Source: Fimicolochytrium jonesii
Taxonomy: Eukaryota
Length of the DNA: 64,000 bases
Assembly: GCF_025526975.1 (NCBI RefSeq)
Contig: NW_026515669.1
Location: forward strand, 868,001-932,000
Reading direction: 5' to 3'
The notes under the pieces are model-generated. The model was not told the origin of the DNA. It did not search any database and saw only the letters and a program-made list of their open reading frames with translations. A program made the position numbers and the translations under genes. Below are positions 1,044 through 39,859 of this stretch, piece by piece. The number at the start of each line of letters is the position of its first letter. Within the stretch, counting starts at the first letter, position 1.

Positions 1044-1891
1044 ATGAACGATTCACGACCTCTTCCACCAGGGTAGGTGCAGCATCCATCGCCGACATCA
1101 GAGCTACCTTGGTCTCATTCTTCCCTTCCTAAATGTATACTTAGTTGGATAACCCAATGGGATGCCAACTACCAAAGATATTTCTTCGTCGGTAAGTTGT
1201 CGCGCGTTCTTGCTTAGACTATGCCTCAGAGTTCCGGTTTTAACATACATAACACATCATATCAGATACTAGCACCGGACAATCCTCGTGGAATGATCCC
1301 AGAGGTCCTCTTCCCAACGCTCCAAGCTCGCAATTGCCGCCTGCATACGGCGTTGGAGCCGCAGCTGGAGGACCACCAAACTACTCGCAGCAGGCACCTG
1401 CACAGAACTTTGCCCCTACGCCGGAGCAATACCAATCGTATCAGCAGCAACAGCAGCCCCCGCAGTATCAGCAGAATGTCCCGCCTGGCGGCTCTGACGA
1501 TCGAGGCCTCGGAAAACTGGCTATGGGCGCAGCCGGGATCTACGCGTTATCAAGCGTTTTGAAGCCTCAACACGGTCATTCCGGAGGCGGCCTGGGTGGC
1601 CTGGGCGCCTTGCTGGGCGGGGGAGGCGGTCATGGAGGGGGTGGATATGGTGGCCACGGGTACGGCCATGGACCATCGCATGGTTCTAGCGGGTTCGGCG
1701 GCGGCGGTATGCTTCCCGGCATGGCGCTGGGTATGGGCGGAATGGCTCTCATGGGCGGGATGGGCGGCAGAAAGCACAAACGCTACGGAAGGAAGCACAA
1801 AGGATGGGGCAAGAGCAAGGGTTGGGGAAAGCACAAGGGATGGGGAATGGGAAAATGGAAAGGTGGGAAAGGATTTGGGAAATGGAAGTAG
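1044..1891 (+). CDS. WW-domain protein with Gln/Gly-rich body and Lys/Trp/Gly tail (Wwm1-like architecture)
   Basis: Introns 1073-1144 and 1192-1265 give MNDSRPLPPGWITQWDANYQRYFFVDTSTGQSSWNDPR (WW domain), continuing into ORF 1334-1891. Confidence 0.85.
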
Positions 1892-2413
1892 ACGGACATG
1901 GTTCATTTGGTATTACGTCACCACCGAAAACTGGTCCATGCCTGATAAGGCAACGTGGGGTTTGGCAGCTTTGCCCCAAATTATTCTACGTGCAAACGAC
2001 TAGTAGGCCCGAAATACGGCCTACAAACTACAATTCCCGCAAGATGGTGCCATGTGCGGCAGTTTTAGAGGATGGAAGCATCGCCTCTCGGAACCCCCAC
2101 GTCAATCCCCTCAGGGCCACGCCCGACACCCAAAGCTACCCCGTCAGAAAAGCGAACATATCATCGTGCGAAATACGAGGCCCATATGAACGCTACCGAA
2201 AGAAAAATAGAGTTTGTCCCACGGCAGTTCGGATCCCGAGCTGCCTGCGTTTCAAGGTAAACCGAACACGCAGTATGTATGGATTAAGCGCGCGGACAAG
2301 GATAAGCGGACGCATCGTCGCGATCGACCTTGGCATCAAAAAATTGATGGTCGCCGAACGGCCAGCCAGGGAACATAAAGCTGTGCCTCTTCCAGTTCCA
2401 TGTGGGAAGTGGT

Positions 2414-3162
2414 TCATGGCGGTATCATTGTGGCAAATCGCTTGGTTCCAAGGAAAGACAGAAGGGGATCGTCCTTCGATCCAAAGTTTCGACCATCCCA
2501 TACGCTCTCCTGTGCGTATGCTTCAGTGATGCGACAGAATAGTATAGCATGTCCATCCCGTTCGGATATGTCTTCGATTTCGCATAAAAGATGCGCGACG
2601 GTGCCCTGAATGGCGATCAGTGGCGGATCTTCATCCTCTGTCGGCTCCCATTCTAGTTTCGTGTAGTTAATTTTGCAGATGGGTATTGCAAACTCTTCGA
2701 ATTTGTCCTTGACCTTCCCCGAGCATGATCCAATGGAAAGCACCAGCTCCTCGGATCGTAGCGTCGGAACATTCAGCACTATGCAAATAAGCATAATCGT
2801 TTGGATTTAATATTGCGTCCATCGTAAAAACTCCAGTTGAACTAGTTGTAAAGTTTCGTACCAAAAGTGTTCGTATGCTGCAGGAGAGACCAAGTATGGC
2901 GATTCAAGTTCATCGAACTGACAAAATGACCCTGGTTATCGATCGCCGTCAACCAGGATATCGTCATGACATTCCTCGCCCAAGTTCCCAGCCCATCGCC
3001 AGCCTCCCCTGTCGTCTCGGTCGTGGTCGCTTCCAGTGGAACTCGCGCGCTTACGGTCAGCAGACACACGGGGTTGGGATAGAGCAGCCTTGAGAGCATG
3101 TGCTTTTGCACCGCTATGGCTTTTGTCGCAGTTGAGGGATTGATGAGGGTCGGTTGTGCCAT
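2414..3162 (-). CDS. Flavin reductase-like (FMN-binding split barrel, DIM6/NTAB-type) protein
   Basis: Two exons (intron 2861-2779); motifs LLYPNPVCLLT, NVMTISWLT, VLNVP, IGSCSG..DKF, DGHAILFC. Confidence 0.8.
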
Positions 3163-3345
3163 TGTGTTGCCGTTCCAGAAAGCGTTCCAGGAAAAGCATC
3201 GAGTCCGGAACGCGTCCGAATGCGACCGCTGCCATTGACGTTTGATTTGACGTTCCCCTTCAAATTCACAGCCTGTTCAGAACCCACAGATAGCCCCAGA
3301 AGTCGTCCTCCAGAAGAAAACCTACGATCTTGTAACAACTCCAGC

Positions 3346-4359
3346 ATGAAGCGCGTGCTGATACTCATAGCGGCGCTCCTATCGCTCGCTTCGGTCGCCG
3401 CGAAAGCAGGCAACCATGTGGTTGATCTCACGGACTCCGACCTGGACTCAGAATTGGAAGGACGGGAGTGGGTTGTCGAATTGTAAGTTTGGTCAAGACC
3501 CCTTTAGAATCACTTTTCCGTTCAAAGGGGGGAAATGCACTTTAGGAGGGACGAGCCGAGGTTTCTCACTTCATACCGCAACCTCCTGTAGTTACGCGAA
3601 ATGGTGCGGGGCTTGCCAGCGGTTCACCTCCGAATACGAAAACGCAGCCGCCCAGCTCCACAAGGAACGCCCTGAACTGAGCCTCGGTCGTGTGGATGTA
3701 GATGCGAATCCAGTGGCATCTGCTAGGTTTATGATATCACGGTAGCGTTTCACTTCTCCATAATGGCACGTAGAAGCTCTGAAACTGATTCCCTGATGAC
3801 GTCTATAGGTTACCGACAATTTATCATGTTCTGAATAAGACGGCACGGCCTATGGAAGTTCGACGAACGGCTGCTGATGTGGTGGAATATCTGACTGAAG
3901 AACGGTGGCGGTCGGTGGAGCCCTTGAACGCTTGGTATTCACCCTTCTCTGTGGGCGGCCACATTCTGGGGACGAGTAAGTGGGATACGGGGGGTACGGC
4001 CGGATGGCCATGCATTCATTCTCACCGCATACATCTATAGTTGGAGGGCTTGGATCTCACCTGGTCAACTTTGCGCAAACATTGCGGACTCTGAGGTTTG
4101 GACACCCAACAGTCATGATTGAACTGATATGTATGGGTTTACTCATGCATTTCTGTCGAAAACCCAGGGTCGAGCAATGGGCATATATTGGCGCCGGGGG
4201 CTTCGTGGTAAGCTACACATATCACCGCATGTGTATGCAACTGCTGGACGGTACTCATCAATATCTTCTTATCTGCAGCTCATCTTACTCCTGGGTCGCC
4301 TGTTCGCCGACACACCCACACCAGGACCTCCACGACGCGAAACGAAGAAGTCGAAGTGA
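3346..4359 (+). CDS. ER membrane thioredoxin/PDI-family protein (TMX1-like)
   Basis: Signal peptide MKRVLILIAALLSLASVAA, WVVEF-YAKWCGAC active site, GRVDVD, hydrophobic C-terminal segment, terminal KKSK di-lysine motif; multi-exon. Confidence 0.85.
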
Positions 4360-18838: not shown

Positions 18839-19299
18839 AAGACAGGAGAATGAGAAAAAGCTTCTGCAATTTTATTGGGAACGGAAAAGAGGGAATAACT
18901 ATCGCTGATGCATGGGTAAAGAGGGGAACGCTGAGAACGGGGGTGGCTGTTTTGTGACAACCTATATATATATATCCCACGAACCACAAGATGCAAATAT
19001 ACAACGATACGAAATTGAGCAGATATACTCAGTGAAGCGAACGATCGATAGTGATGGCAGTAGTCGTGACGCGTCATGTCGACGAAAAGCGCCTTCCAGG
19101 TTGGGTGACTGGGAGTGTCAAGTATGGATATCACTACGATGACGTTGCTTGGGTGGATGACTACGAGTATATTGCGCGGGAAGTTCTGGAGGGTACCGGC
19201 GCCAGCTGGCCGTGAACTTGTGCGCATCTGAAACTGGGAAAATGTCGGCAACGATGCGATGCTGTGGCGGTGGGGGTTGCCGACGACTGGGGTTCCAGA

Positions 19300-28415: not shown

Positions 28416-29123
28416 ATGTTCCTCCTACCATCAAAGCGGCTAGCTACCTGTGTACCGAAGTTTCTGGAATCAACATTCTCTGGAACTGATGCAAAGATTG
28501 ACAGCCGACTTTGGCAAGAACTCCGTGCAGAAGAAGTCCATGCGGGGTCCACAGGTGCTTGTGCCTTGCGGGGCAAGCCAAGCGTAGTCGGTGATCATTA
28601 CGGAGCAGCTAAGGGGAGAAATGTTCTACCAGTGTCTACGGGGGAGATCGAGAACAACAAAGGTCCAGATCTGGATGTGGAAGACTACCTGGGCAATCCT
28701 TCGGCTCCCATCCCCCAAGGGCTAGATAGGGACGGGTTCACCGATGGACTCACAAAACCGTTGGCGAACAAGGTGGAGTTCGGTAACCATTTCAATAATG
28801 GCAAGTTGCCGATAGGCGAGGACGCCAACAGAGGTGCAGCAATCCGGGTCAGGGAGGATTCATCGGTTGAGGGACGGCTAAACGGCTCGCTCAGACGCGA
28901 CAATCCTAACAACGACGGGTTAGCCATCGAGTCTCAATTACGAGCAGATGCCGGACAGATTGGCGCCCGACCCATGGTGCAGCGAACGCAACCTTTGCAG
29001 GTTGTCACGGATAGGATGCCGGTTGTAATCAAGACGAAGAACGTCGAGGCTGTGAATCCACGCTTGGATCCCACCACACGTATAACTACCGATCTTTACC
29101 CGTGGATCAAAGAGAAGTCCTGA
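28416..29123 (+). CDS. Intronless orphan ORF (235 aa), possibly a truncated foreign gene
   Basis: Open 708-nt frame with G/N/D-rich protein-like composition, starting only ~90 nt after the GH5 stop. Confidence 0.45.
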   Translation: MFLLPSKRLATCVPKFLESTFSGTDAKIDSRLWQELRAEEVHAGSTGACALRGKPSVVGDHYGAAKGRNVLPVSTGEIENNKGPDLDVEDYLGNPSAPIPQGLDRDGFTDGLTKPLANKVEFGNHFNNGKLPIGEDANRGAAIRVREDSSVEGRLNGSLRRDNPNNDGLAIESQLRADAGQIGARPMVQRTQPLQVVTDRMPVVIKTKNVEAVNPRLDPTTRITTDLYPWIKEKS

Positions 29124-29295
29124 GAATGCTAGCGTCTACACCGGGTGATGCTTATCCCTTCTGCCGAGCGTTTTGATCTGACTCAATGCGTTCGCTTTTG
29201 ATATCATTTCTATATATATATGTACCAGTAGATTCGGCGAAGCCATGTTTGAAACCATCAGCGACAGGGTAATTCTAGTGATTGGGTGTGTACGT

Positions 29296-29952
29296 TCGAC
29301 GCTGAGTCGGTTCCTCCACGACTAGTATCCCGGAGGAAGTCGTGGGATCCACCTCCCCGCGTGGATCTTCATCCGGTACCCTAATCGACTATCGGCCCGC
29401 GGGAATCCACGGCTTGGTACCACGTAGGTGGATGCTGGATGTACCGTGGTGCCGGCAATTGGAGCCGGTCGTCCATAGGCAGATACCTCGGGTATCTATT
29501 CTCCGAGTATAACTGGGTCCTCGCCGGCAGTGATATCCGGCCGCCCGGTCCCGGCTAGCCGCCGGGTCCCACGCCATGGTCACCCCGACCAATGGTGACG
29601 CCTATGGTGTCCCCGTGGTATGGAGGTCCGGGGCCGGTACGTGCTGCGCCTACCCACCGGTCGGCGACCTGTCCCCGCGTGGGATCGGTGTCATAGGTAC
29701 CCGTGGGACCCGGTGACGGCTCGTGGGATCGTAGACCCACCCAGACGACGATACCGGACCACGTCCATCGGGTCCGGTCGGGAATCGGGCGGCCTCCGAT
29801 CCAGGTTCCCTACGGATCGCAGGGAATATTACCTGAGGTCCAAGGACGACAGGAACGGTAGGGTGGCCGACTGGCTGCCCTACTCGTGCCTCTCCAGTCT
29901 TCACACACGCAAGCGTGATTCCGAGGCACTTACAAGTAAGTACCGGACTGGT
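29296..29952 (+). ncRNA. Putative large structured non-coding RNA or ssDNA element, class unknown
   Basis: More than 15 helices of 5-12 bp found by eye, nested long-range stems, G-T pairs that form only on the + strand, terminal pseudoknot, no credible ORF. Confidence 0.6.
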
Positions 29953-29985
29953 AAAACAATTAGTAAAACAATTAGTAACTGGTAA
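29947..29985 (+). repeat. Tandem 12-mer (GTAAAACAATTA)x2 bracketed by direct repeats ACTGGTAA
   Basis: actggtaaaacaattagtaaaacaattagtaactggtaa read directly. Confidence 0.85.
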
Positions 29986-30557
29986 CATGAAAAGACGGTG
30001 ATTATTGCGCACCAGATTGCGGGTGGCAGCAAATGTTTGCCCACAATAAGAATTTCTGCCAAAACAGGCTTCTTGGGCCGAAAAGAGGGCTAATGGAAAC
30101 CCTCTATTGGGCTGGGCTGTCCGGCACGCTCACTTGGAGTATCAGCGTGTGATGACGTTAGAGGGAGCGAGGGTGGGGGTGATGTGAGAAGGTTGGTCCG
30201 AATTCGTGGGGTGAGCAAACGACGTCGTAGGTGGAGCTGGACGGGAGAGAGAAGGGACATCTGGGCTTGGGATGTCGTGCTAGGGGGAGTAAGTGTGCTG
30301 CTGCCGGCTGTTGCGATGTGTCGTTAGTGGGAAAGAAAAAGTGTAAAGAATCTACTAACAGATTCACGGGTAGGGGGGCGGCGAACGGAACAAGACAGGG
30401 AAACGGACCCCATGGACTCATCTGCCATTCGTACAGCTGTACATTCCATCCCAAGTGTTACTGTACATCCCACAAAAACAAAAGCGTATATGACAAAGGG
30501 CTCCCCCTAAAAGACTTGCAAAACATCCCACATCCCATCCCCATCCTACCCACCACC

Positions 30558-31825
30558 CTAAAACCCATACTTTGCCCTCGTAGCCGCCTTTGTAACCCTT
30601 TTCTGCGCCGCCGCCTCCGCAAGCGCATCCTGCCTCGCCCTTGCATCCACCGCGAGGGCCATGATGGTATGTTTGCGTTTCCCCGCCTTACTCACACCAC
30701 CTCCGTGACCAACTGCTGTGGAGGACCGTTTGGAGGTGTCGGGGGTCCAGTGGGTGTCGATGAGGGAGGATTGGGTTATTTCTGTGATGTTGATTTCGTG
30801 GGAGGAGGTGGAGGGGGTTGAGAGGGCGCGGAGGGCGTCGTGGGGGAGGTTGGAGGGGAGGTTTGGGAATGGGTGGGGGCCGGAGGGGTATGTTTCTGGC
30901 GGGTAGGATTCTACCCCGTATACTTCCGGGGTGTAAGCATATTGAGCGGAGGCGGAGTAGGCGTATTGGGCGGATGCGGAGGGGGTGGTGTATGTGTAGT
31001 CTGCTGATGCGGATGCCGTTGGTTCGTCTTCTGTGTAGGTTGGTGTTGGGTTTGCTGTTCGGAGGGATGTGTGAGTGAGTTTGAGGGTCAGCGAGGGGAT
31101 TGGAGGGGAGAATGTTACGTACATAGTGTGAAGAACTCGTCCGCGCCGATTTCATCCTCGTCATCGACTGGATCGTTGCTTGGAGGCAGCGGTTTGTTTA
31201 TCGTCCCACTTCCACCAGTTGCACCCATGGGCTTGCTCTTATTCTTCTTCGAAAGGGTATATGGTACCATGGGTGTTGATGCGAGGGGAGCCGTGCGTGG
31301 TACTCCTGACGCTGACGCTGACGCCGCCCCTGTTTCGGGTGGAATCCCAACATCACCTCCTCCGGCACTCTTCTTTGGCGGCGGTAATCTACTGAAGAGA
31401 TCTGATACAGCTGACGACGCGGGCTTTCCCTCTCCCACTCCCTTCCCTCCCTTCGTGTCGTCATCCTCATCCTCGTCATCCCCAACACGAGGCAGGTCAA
31501 CATAAATCTTCACCCTCTTCCCTCGTTTCGCGTCGCGGTCTGCAGAGTCGGCGTTTGGTCGTTTTGGTGGGTTGGTGGTGGAGGAGGAGGACGCTGAGCG
31601 GGGCGGCGGGAGAGCTGCGAATAGGTTTTTGGATGGTTGTGGTGGAAGTGCGTTCGTTTGGCGTGAGGATGGAGGAGGGAGGTTTGCGAAGAGGGAGGCT
31701 GGTGGTGGTTTGGACGAGGATGGTTGCTGTTGTTGTTGTGGTAACTCAGGAGTGGGGATATTGTTTGGTTCCGAGTCTGCGTCTGAGTCGGATGAGGAGC
31801 CGTAGTCTAGCGGGACGAGGGACAT
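30558..31825 (-). CDS. PRCC: PRCC-family proline-rich spliceosome-associated protein
   Basis: N-terminal MSLVPLDYGSSSDSD, repeated LF.xLPPP, C-terminal KRKHTIMALA...TRAKYGF; two exons. Confidence 0.88.
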
Positions 31826-32078: not shown

Positions 32079-34262
32079 ATGAACGTAGACTCCATTTTCA
32101 AGGTTGACTAAGGGCTAACCATGTTGCCATGAGTGAAACGGTTTGCTGACTTCCGCTTTTTTTGGATGGGAACTAGGTCCCGGCACCGCCTACAAACTTC
32201 ACGAAGAAGCGCAAGCTGCCGTCAACCCCAGACGTGTCCTCACTCAAAAAGTTCAAACCCGATAATGATGAGGAGGACTACCGGGCGGGTTGGGGACCGG
32301 GGAAACTCAACACACCGTCTACCGGCCCCGAAAATGGCGCCGCGCCTGAGGACGACGAAGACGTGAGGTTCTATGGCGAAGGGCTGGACGCTGAACAGAA
32401 GAAGATCTGGGATATAGTCGACGCCGGTGAAGAGGTGACTTTCGCTTCCTGTCCTTATGAGCTAGCGTTTCGGGAAGTGCTGACATTCGTCTGAACCCGA
32501 AGCTTCCGGAAACGATTGATGTGCCGCAACTGAAGCGAATGGTACTGAAGCTCGAGAAGATCGTAAACAAGAACCAGGAGTTCCGAATGAAATATGCAAA
32601 TGACCCGATTAAGTGTGTTTTGGCTAAACCTTGATTCTCTCCTTGTTCACTTCATTGATCGGTCCAATCAGGTTCATAGAATCCGAAGCAGATCTTGACG
32701 AGGAACTGAAAAACATGCAAGCCGCTAGTGCATCCCCGGAAATCTACTCAACTCTAGTCGACCTTGGAACCCACGCTACGGTTTTGAGCTTGCTATCGCA
32801 CGAGAACACGGACATCTCGATTGCAGCGGTGGAGCTTTTAAACGAGTTGACAGATGAAGATCTCGTTGCAGAAGCGTCAGAAGAAGCTGAGGAGGGGATG
32901 AAAGTGTTGGTCAAAGGTCTCATTGATAATGATGCCTTATCGCTGCTGGTACACAACCTACAGCGTTTAAATGAAGAGCAAACGGAAGATAAGCAAGGCG
33001 TTTTCAACACGTTGTCCGTGATCGAGAACTTCATCGCCGTGGACCCCGCCTTGTCAGAAAAGGTCGTTGCCGAGACAACGTTGCTGAATTACATTCTTCA
33101 GCGAATCCGCACGAAAGTATTCGACTCCAACCGGCAGTATGCCACCGAACTTTTGGCCATTCTTTTACAAAGATCACGAGCCAACCGCTTGAAGCTGGGA
33201 GAATTAGGCGGCGTAGACGTTCTTTTGCAAGTTCTTTCTGCTTACAAAAGAAAGGACCCAAAAGATCCGGACGAGATAGAACTCCTGGAGAATGTATTCG
33301 ACGCATTATGCGCGGTGCTGGCCGAACCCGAAGGGAAGGAGCATTTCCTCGAAGGCGAGGGAATGGAGCTGATGCTGTTGATGGTCAAAGAGAAGAAACT
33401 GGCACGCATGCGTGCTTTCAAAGTTTTGTCTCATGCCATGCTTGGGGCCGATGGAGCGAAGTGTTGCGCCCATTTCGTTGAGATTTTCGGACTGCGGACG
33501 TTATTCCCAGCGTTAATGCGCAAAGGTGTCAAGCAGTACAAGAAGACCTACAAAGCCTTCTCGGAAACGGAAGAAGACGAATACTTGGTGACCATCATGG
33601 CGTCGCTATTGAAGAACTTGACACAACTCGATCTGCGTGAACGCTTTATCCTCAAGTTTGTGGGATCGGATATTGAGAAAGTTGATCGGCTCATGGATAT
33701 GCATTTGCAATACTACGCCAGAGTTGCGGCGGCCGATGCCACCATTGCGGAGAGGCAACGATCCCGCGAGGATGAGGACCTGGACGAAGATGAATTGGAG
33801 GCGGCGAAGGAAGAGGATTTCCTAGACAAGTTGACGGCCGGCTTCTTTACACTTCAGCTGTTGGACTTCGTTATTGCTTTTGTTTGTTTCGAAGATGCTT
33901 CCGGCGAGGTATGTGTCTAACCACTTCTCTACCAGTTCAAACCACACGCCTCCATGTGCTGAATCCATTCGATTGCAGGTGCGGAAAAAGGTAACATCGC
34001 GTCTGGAAGGCGCTGGGCAATCCATCGAAACAATAAAGAGCGTACTCAAAGGTGCGTCGCTGTCACTTGTTGTCGGCTGTGCTCACACTTACTCATCAGT
34101 CTTCCTCTGTCAACAGAATATGCCAACAACGTGGGAGAGTCGTCATCACCGAAACCGGCAGAGCCGTCCTCTACTGAGTCCGCTGCTGATGCAACGGAAT
34201 CGTCAGATGCATACGCTCAGCGGGAGCGTGCCATGATAATAGGGGTCATGGAAGCATTATAG
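32079..34262 (+). CDS. CTNNBL1: Beta-catenin-like protein 1 (Prp19 complex)
   Basis: KNQEFRMKYANDPIK|FIESEADLDEE, LLSHENTDISIA, FDSNRQYATELLAILLQ, YKRKDP, ENVFDALC, FLEGEGMELM, GFFTLQLLD. Confidence 0.95.
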
Positions 34263-39648: not shown

Positions 39649-39761
39649 TACCTTAGGCCTATTGTGCGCGAGATCGGAAGTAGCCAACGGAGGTCAGATC
39701 GTACTAGTATAGTCTATTCTGGTTGTTTATAGAAAAAGGGTAAGTTTGTGGGTTGGGCCAT

Positions 39762-39859
39762 GGCCGTGGCCGTCCTCCCCCCCCCCCCCCCCCCACCCCC
39801 CGCCTCACCCCCCCCCCCCAGAGGCGTCGCGTCAAACGCGGGAGGGGACGGCCACGGCC
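39762..39859. repeat. Perfect 14-bp inverted repeat enclosing poly-C tracts
   Basis: GGCCGTGGCCGTCC (39762-39775) / GGACGGCCACGGCC (39846-39859); C18 run at 39777-39794 plus further C runs. Confidence 0.9.

Follow-up and report, generated by a model that had tools for sequence, protein, structure and literature searches.

We analysed a 64,000-nt stretch of the genome of the soil chytrid Fimicolochytrium jonesii (contig NW_026515669.1, positions 868,001 to 932,000; hereafter, the window, in whose numbering all coordinates are given). A structured block was located on the + strand at 29253-29952, at a locus flanked by host genes on both sides. It lies within a 1434-base gap between two convergent stop codons, that of a + strand ORF (29123) and that of the PRCC gene on the - strand (30558). 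The CTNNBL1 gene is found at 32177-34262; its product is 100% identical to a protein of F. jonesii, with the next-closest proteins coming from other Spizellomycetales, and a GH5 hydrolase gene lies farther to the left of the block. Among 38 additional long ORFs scanned, six matched Pfam, all of them ordinary eukaryotic families, and none matched a viral or transposon family.

The upstream ORF is on the same strand as the block and ends 172 bases before 29296, the position from which the element had initially been delimited. Between the two is an AT-richer spacer with a (TA)5 run, which had been noted before and was placed at 29211-29220; it could be a TATA-like promoter for the block or a 3'-end signal of the upstream ORF. 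The sole other (TA)n run of the window (18963-18974) lies 125 bases past a stop codon, which suggests that these runs can be 3'-end signals here, so the (TA)5 run is not necessarily a promoter. The block has a sharp right edge, which coincides with an A-rich 12-base tandem repeat of 2.3 copies (29951-29978), which on the - strand reads as a branch point and an acceptor. Together with a donor, these match the splice consensus on the - strand (30133-29949), with the acceptor falling exactly on that edge. A canonical-looking 73-base intron (GTAAGT ... TACTAACAG) was also seen on the + strand at 30289-30361, opposite the 3' end of PRCC, and may mark an unannotated + strand transcript.

The composition of the block was assessed next to that of the rest of the window. 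As the first-pass annotation had described, the block is GC-rich (63% GC), and every sequence quoted there was present where it had been placed. No AAA or TTT starts from 29253 to 29952; at 701 bases this gap exceeds every other of its kind in the window, the next being 446. A gap of this kind was rare against base shuffles (3 of 2000), though not when dinucleotides were kept (about 10%), because the block is low in AA and TT; it is also low in GpC. The words CGTGG and CCACG occur in 12 copies, compared to 3.3 ± 1.8 in shuffles, with none of 2000 shuffles as high. The block has compositionally sharp edges and contains direct repeats. Three-base periodicity was absent from it (1.9, against 5.6 and 13.1 in coding controls), and a coding relic was rejected on this ground together with stops in every frame and the lack of a Pfam match in the two frames tested. 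ARAGORN detected no tRNA genes.

The upstream ORF, annotated as a protein of 235 aa, proved to be composite. Its 180 C-terminal codons (28581-29123, + strand) belong to a protein family with whole lengths of 670-740 aa, and the frame is open to the family's own C-terminus. Similarity to the family begins abruptly at 28581-28590 and continues to the stop codon, while the 55 in-frame codons that supply the ATG (28416-28580) are not homologous to the family and have a GC3 of 0.44, compared to 0.58-0.63 in host genes. Relative to the 673- and 737-aa cluster members, the ORF lacks ~490-550 residues at its start. Given the abrupt start of similarity, what the window contains is therefore the final quarter of the gene, preceded by 55 unrelated codons. 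Identity of the fragment (tblastn) was 59-60% to P0122 and P0123 and 39-43% to P0124-P0129. Matches other than the ORF itself were few, namely two of 253 candidates and, when a profile was used, six of 3864, all from metagenome sources. These homologue searches covered proteins of 123-510 aa, so that full-length copies elsewhere among the chytrids may have escaped them.

Placement of this family relied on a language-model search, in which P0129, a full-length relative, was nearest to clusters made up of Nucleocytoviricota only (score 0.95-0.96, at a low recognition value of 971). In these nearest clusters, 35-42% of members carried DUF5899. On this sequence evidence the fragment is likely of giant-virus (Nucleocytoviricota) origin. 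The family had no Pfam, PHROG or PDB match, and its predicted structure was unusable (pLDDT 38). It had no confirmed locus in viral contigs and none in phages (tblastn), and among metagenome contigs 0 of 191 and two of 110 candidate stretches were confirmed. The two metagenome loci, L001 and L002, encode relatives with 44-46% identity on compact DNA with long uninterrupted ORFs and 39-41% GC. L001 (43% identical in a separate comparison) is the one relative with downstream DNA; no folded block was present behind its gene, where a 130-base spacer is followed by a convergent ORF.

Folding strength was measured as minimum energy relative to sets of 30 shuffles. The + strand of 29296-29952 folded at -314.8 kcal/mol, with z-scores of -5.4, -4.7, -5.7 and -3.2 against shuffles preserving 2-, 3-, 4- and 5-mers, respectively, and was matched by 0 of 30 shuffles in each set. 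The dense base pairing first noticed by eye is thus borne out. The - strand reached -305.0 kcal/mol (z -2.9, -2.7, -2.2 and -3.0 for the same four sets). The 12 most GC-rich 657-nt windows elsewhere gave z-scores of -1.15 to +2.35 (24 strand folds, nine shuffles each). In 150-base windows on the + strand, z fell below -2 in just four of 26 (29450 and 29750-29999), and therefore most of the folding excess comes from long-range pairing.

The first-pass annotation had also held that wobble pairs work only on the + strand. Within Watson–Crick helices, G-T cells outnumbered A-C cells 18 to 4 and 38 to 17 in a strand-symmetric count. The corresponding differences in shuffles were 1.8 ± 4.2 and 2.4 ± 5.6, which places the block about three standard deviations above them. 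This excess favours the + strand, and the preference claimed earlier holds, although "only" was an overstatement, as several G-U helices are specific to the - strand. The energy gap between the strands (-9.8 kcal/mol) was within the spread of 60 shuffles (-2.6 ± 7.2). Three CUUG loops are read on the - strand of the block, and with DNA parameters both of its strands fold well (z -7.3 and -5.1).

The predicted + strand fold consists of a 5' domain, a main arm and a set of 3' hairpins. The 5' domain (29309-29466) contains hairpins at 29316-45, 29346-67 and 29392-29455 and a telomere-like ACCCTAA of seven bases at 29378. The main multibranched arm (29468-29850) is built from four nested helices with inner branches (29468-74/29844-50, 29485-94/29830-39, 29539-48/29785-94 and 29561-72/29703-14), which had pairing probabilities of 0.96-1.00 in every fold containing the arm, whichever ends were chosen. 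Behind it come an 11-bp hairpin with tandem G-U pairs (29858-29883, p 0.98-1.00) and an H/ACA-like 3' hairpin (29886-29937), with a 7-bp lower stem (29886-92/29923-29), a pocket, an upper stem and an ACA at 29932-34. The latter is the free minimum when 29280-29990 is folded. It competes with another predicted hairpin (29926-29952), which carries the GTAAGT splice-donor consensus on both strands (+ 29936, - 29933). Overall, the last 70 bases of the block have three folds within 0.5 kcal/mol of one another, one of which hides the ACA.

This fold differs in part from the stems named initially. The perfect 12-bp stem 29562-73/29702-13 is in the ensemble (p ≥ 0.9), as are the local hairpins 29346-67, 29753-78 and 29858-83 (p ≥ 0.9); the fourth local hairpin, AGATACC/GGTATCT, is not favoured, and forcing it costs 3 kcal/mol. 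The other three of the four long-range stems had to be given up. They are not in the best fold, and forcing them costs 8 kcal/mol for GTCGTC with 29744-49, 7 kcal/mol for CTGGGT/ACCCAG and 11 kcal/mol for the stem with four G-T pairs, while forcing all of the earlier stems together costs 23 kcal/mol. The GTCGTC at 29468 is better paired with 29844-50, the GTCGTC/GACGAC and CTGGGT/ACCCAG stems overlap at base 29744, and both arms of the four-G-T stem carry one GGTGTC direct repeat.

Comparison with known RNA families yielded nothing specific. Rfam gave no match at gathering score in the 64 kb, in keeping with the initial description of the element as being of no recognisable class. At E ≤ 10 there were only unrelated weak matches, the best inside the block being mir-1231 (18 bits versus 80). 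RNase P/MRP, SRP, spliceosomal snRNA, U3, group I and II introns and riboswitches were rejected for want of an Rfam match, as was a ribozyme-bearing viroid-like RNA or retrozyme (hammerhead, hairpin, HDV-like, twister). Core patterns and an HDV-like descriptor found no ribozyme core inside the block. Several resemblances, judged by eye, were dismissed as chance: a hairpin-ribozyme loop B at 29823, a U1-like ACTTAC, a U3 box A-like ATCATTTCTATA at 29203, an RNase P P4-like helix (29622/29790) and a group II domain VI-like hairpin. An snR30-like m2 at 29252 (29252-29266), an exact match to the heptamer and five bases before an ACA, was likewise put down to chance, being one of six copies in the window.

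Homologues of the block itself were sought at the DNA level. Patterns derived from it hit 0, 19, 2 and at least 120 loci in viral contigs (the last in 37 of 64 parts) and two loci in prokaryote genomes; 145 loci were fetched, and no stretch longer than 26 bases aligned in any of them. With blastn, the block had no match in phages and two in plasmids (E 0.2), and the 64-kb window contains no second copy. The large structured non-coding + strand element proposed initially withstood the folding controls, Rfam at two thresholds and the periodicity test, with the reservation that several of the stems named for it are not favoured. The bacterial RNAs GOLLD, ROOL and OLE (PMC12286853) are likewise large, densely and hierarchically paired and of uncertain function. 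They are defined by covariation, whereas the block has no Rfam match and is known from its predicted fold.

Taking the block and its neighbour together, we tentatively favour, with somewhat less than even confidence, the reading that the block was an independent structured RNA gene in a giant virus of fungi and was captured with the end of the viral gene upstream. A structured end or origin of a virus or mobile element had been among the first suggestions for the element. The likely giant-virus gene fragment ending 172 bases upstream speaks for the viral side of that suggestion, although pattern scans of viral contigs did not find the block itself. Under the captured-gene reading, the chytrid chromosome would have acquired, in one event, a viral piece of roughly 1.4 kb comprising the gene tail and the block. 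One capture is favoured because viral relics are rare, and a host RNA gene is unlikely to lie less than 200 bases from one by chance. In neutral-decay simulations with an assumed indel rate, the 180-codon frame stayed open with a probability of 0.08 at 5% change, and the fold weakened to -294 ± 13 kcal/mol at 5% and -275 ± 13 kcal/mol at 10%. Frame and fold would both be lost quickly in this way, so that a single recent capture explains both, and the piece would be young or still under selection. The dinucleotide skew of the ORF points in the direction of that of the block (r 0.82, rank 45 of 693 overlapping windows), though host windows at 39.3-40.0 kb share the block's skew more strongly than the ORF does. 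The hallmarks of insertion looked for at the ends, a target-site duplication and a clean terminal repeat, were both absent.

As modelled here, + strand transcription would start in the AT-rich spacer near 29210 and run through the block, giving an RNA of about 650-700 bases. Most speculatively, this RNA would have no catalytic core and might serve as a compact scaffold or decoy, its repeated CGUGG/CCACG helices offering a protein many binding sites; targets such as host RNA-silencing or double-strand-RNA-sensing proteins are conceivable at the same level of speculation. A more ambitious version, in which the block represents a new large ornate RNA class of fungal giant viruses, captured and then kept folded and expressed by host selection, possibly with H/ACA-type maturation through the 3' hairpin and ACA, seems distinctly unlikely to us.

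Relics of giant viruses have been reported from this group of fungi. F. jonesii JEL569 is reported to carry a lone giant-virus major capsid gene among host genes, and Mycodnaviridae relics are described from chytrids (PMC13533422). The present locus is similar in that one viral-like gene piece sits among host genes; it differs in that the gene is another one and truncated, and that the donor can be placed only near Nucleocytoviricota clusters. The words "hairpin", "inverted repeat" and "non-coding" are absent from the main text of that paper, and we found no described RNA of a fungal giant virus in the open-access literature. Mimivirus has 33 annotated "uncharacterized probable non-coding RNA genes" (PMC3058096). 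Like the block, these occupy protein-free, gene-sized gaps and have no assigned function, and they belong to a Nucleocytoviricota genome. They are, however, defined by transcripts in an AT-rich virus, whereas the block has 63% GC, lies in a host chromosome and is known from DNA alone. If viral, the block would suggest that the fungal giant viruses described recently possess a non-coding RNA gene. Such RNA genes could then be carried into host chromosomes and would go unnoticed in relic surveys that rely on protein markers. Were it made by the host instead, the block would be an orphan RNA of large size from a branch of the fungi for which we found no telomerase RNA described in the open-access literature. 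In either case, the locus sits in a cultured species.

Two host readings make use of the 3' end of the fold. An orphan H/ACA RNA made by host polymerase II, ending at 29937 and lying beside the viral fragment by chance, is unlikely, though it retains a modest share of the probability. It would guide or chaperone an RNA target and follow the snR30 order of a 5' leader, a giant 5' hairpin, an H box, an internal hairpin, a 3' hairpin and an ACA plus three bases. An ANANNA (ACAGGA, 29849-54) does stand directly behind the main arm and before the internal hairpin, but its first two bases are predicted to be paired. In H/ACA RNAs, the ACA of the 3' hairpin lies 14-16 bases below the pocket and three bases from the end; here it lies 13-14 bases from the upper stem of a hairpin with a 7-bp lower stem and a pocket. 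Just 12 of 1872 ACA sites on both strands of the window passed a descriptor for this arrangement, but the descriptor was written after the block had been seen, and the near-equal folds of the last 70 bases weaken the match further. Yeast snR30/U17 (PMC7601244), at 606 nt, has its parts in the same order as the long 5' hairpin, H-like box, internal hairpin, pocketed 3' hairpin and ACA predicted here. Identity with snR30/U17 was nevertheless rejected on the motifs given in PMC7601244 and PMC2664660: no copy of m1 (AUAUUCCUA) exists in 29124-30560, and the sole m2 (AAACCAU) of that interval stands upstream, at 29252, outside the 3' hairpin and five rather than seven bases before an ACA. The 3' hairpin thus has neither; only the 5-base complement of rm1 (AUUCC) is present, on the wrong side of the pocket. 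There is no Rfam snoRNA match, and the predicted loops are just 29% A. A chytrid telomerase RNA in the animal-like order of 5' template domain, long arm and H/ACA end would account for the same 3' hairpin and for ACCCTAA at 29378, unpaired or weakly paired within a closed 5' domain; we consider it the least probable of the readings weighed. No chytrid telomerase RNA was found described in the open-access literature, and the chytrid names searched in the TeloBase supplement (PMC10767889) were not present there. The block recalls vertebrate and fungal telomerase RNAs (PMC4993307, PMC12506658) in what may be a 5' domain bearing a C-rich single strand, and those of vertebrates also in a possible H/ACA end. 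Yet the longest (CCCTAA)n match in the block is seven bases, whereas a template typically holds 1.5-2 repeats (PMC4993307) and Batrachochytrium telomeres are TTAGGG (PMC11797018); TACCCTA would suit a 5-base TAGGG repeat with two alignment bases. The U/A-rich pseudoknot and Sm site of telomerase RNAs (PMC4993307, PMC12506658) are lacking as well. With no UUU or AAA on either strand, the block offers no U/A run on which the U-A.U triple helix (PMC12506658) could form. No two unpaired segments of the 5' domain pair over five bases or more, the only 5-bp pseudoknot match lies inside the arm, no hairpin of the size of P6.1, which belongs to the CR4/5 junction, was seen by eye at the predicted junctions, and the block has no Sm site.

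Three further readings were weighed. A non-autonomous mobile element, SINE-like or a palindromic repeat, inserted at a (TA)n run or itself carrying the viral fragment, is improbable. Its fold would serve recognition by a reverse transcriptase or transposase, and the sharp compositional edges, the internal direct repeats, the short tandem repeat at the 3' edge and a polymerase-III B-box match at 29294 would fit. B-box matches are common, with 26 in the window, and no A box occurs in 29124-30560. As neither a second copy in the window nor, at the ends, a duplication or clean terminal repeat was detected, a SINE, MITE or solo LTR is not supported, the B box being its only feature. A stand-alone polymerase III gene is also unlikely, since no T4 run occurs on the + strand until 30599. 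We give a small chance to a cis-acting structure controlling splicing or stability from within a neighbour's UTR or intron, either a 3' UTR belonging to the + strand ORF or, on the - strand, a 3' extension joined to PRCC by splicing. The position between convergent stop codons 1434 bases apart agrees with it, as do the GTAAGT on both strands within one hairpin, the - strand donor at 30133 with a branch point and an acceptor ending at 29949, and the three - strand CUUG loops. The G-T bias, however, favours the + strand over a PRCC-strand UTR, and the branch-point match sits within the tandem repeat. The 660 bases of nested long-range pairing are also far more than fungal UTR elements are known to need. 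Finally, the block could be a viral DNA-level element that never becomes RNA, such as a single-stranded origin or a genome end with repeated CGTGG protein sites, for which we see a very small chance. The 12 CGTGG/CCACG copies and the good folds of both strands with DNA parameters are in its favour; the branched long-range fold with no long palindrome and the strand bias of the G-T pairs are not.

Some minor features were recorded in the window and on the metagenome contigs. At 39760-39856, a GC-rich hairpin of ~17 bp surrounds long runs of C, which read as G on the - strand, and contains the word CCGTGG/CCACGG, as in the block; the fold of the 651 bases around it was no better than that of shuffles (z -1.1). 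The L001 contig ends in ~62-base tandem repeats (3290-3540). Its - strand has a 639-aa ORF beside the viral-like gene (1281-3200) with no significant Pfam match, whose C-terminal part shows by eye an R..SxS..E pattern that we take to be reminiscent of ADP-ribosyltransferases. The compact L002 contig that carries the viral-like gene also encodes a glutamine synthetase catalytic domain (3-326, + strand).
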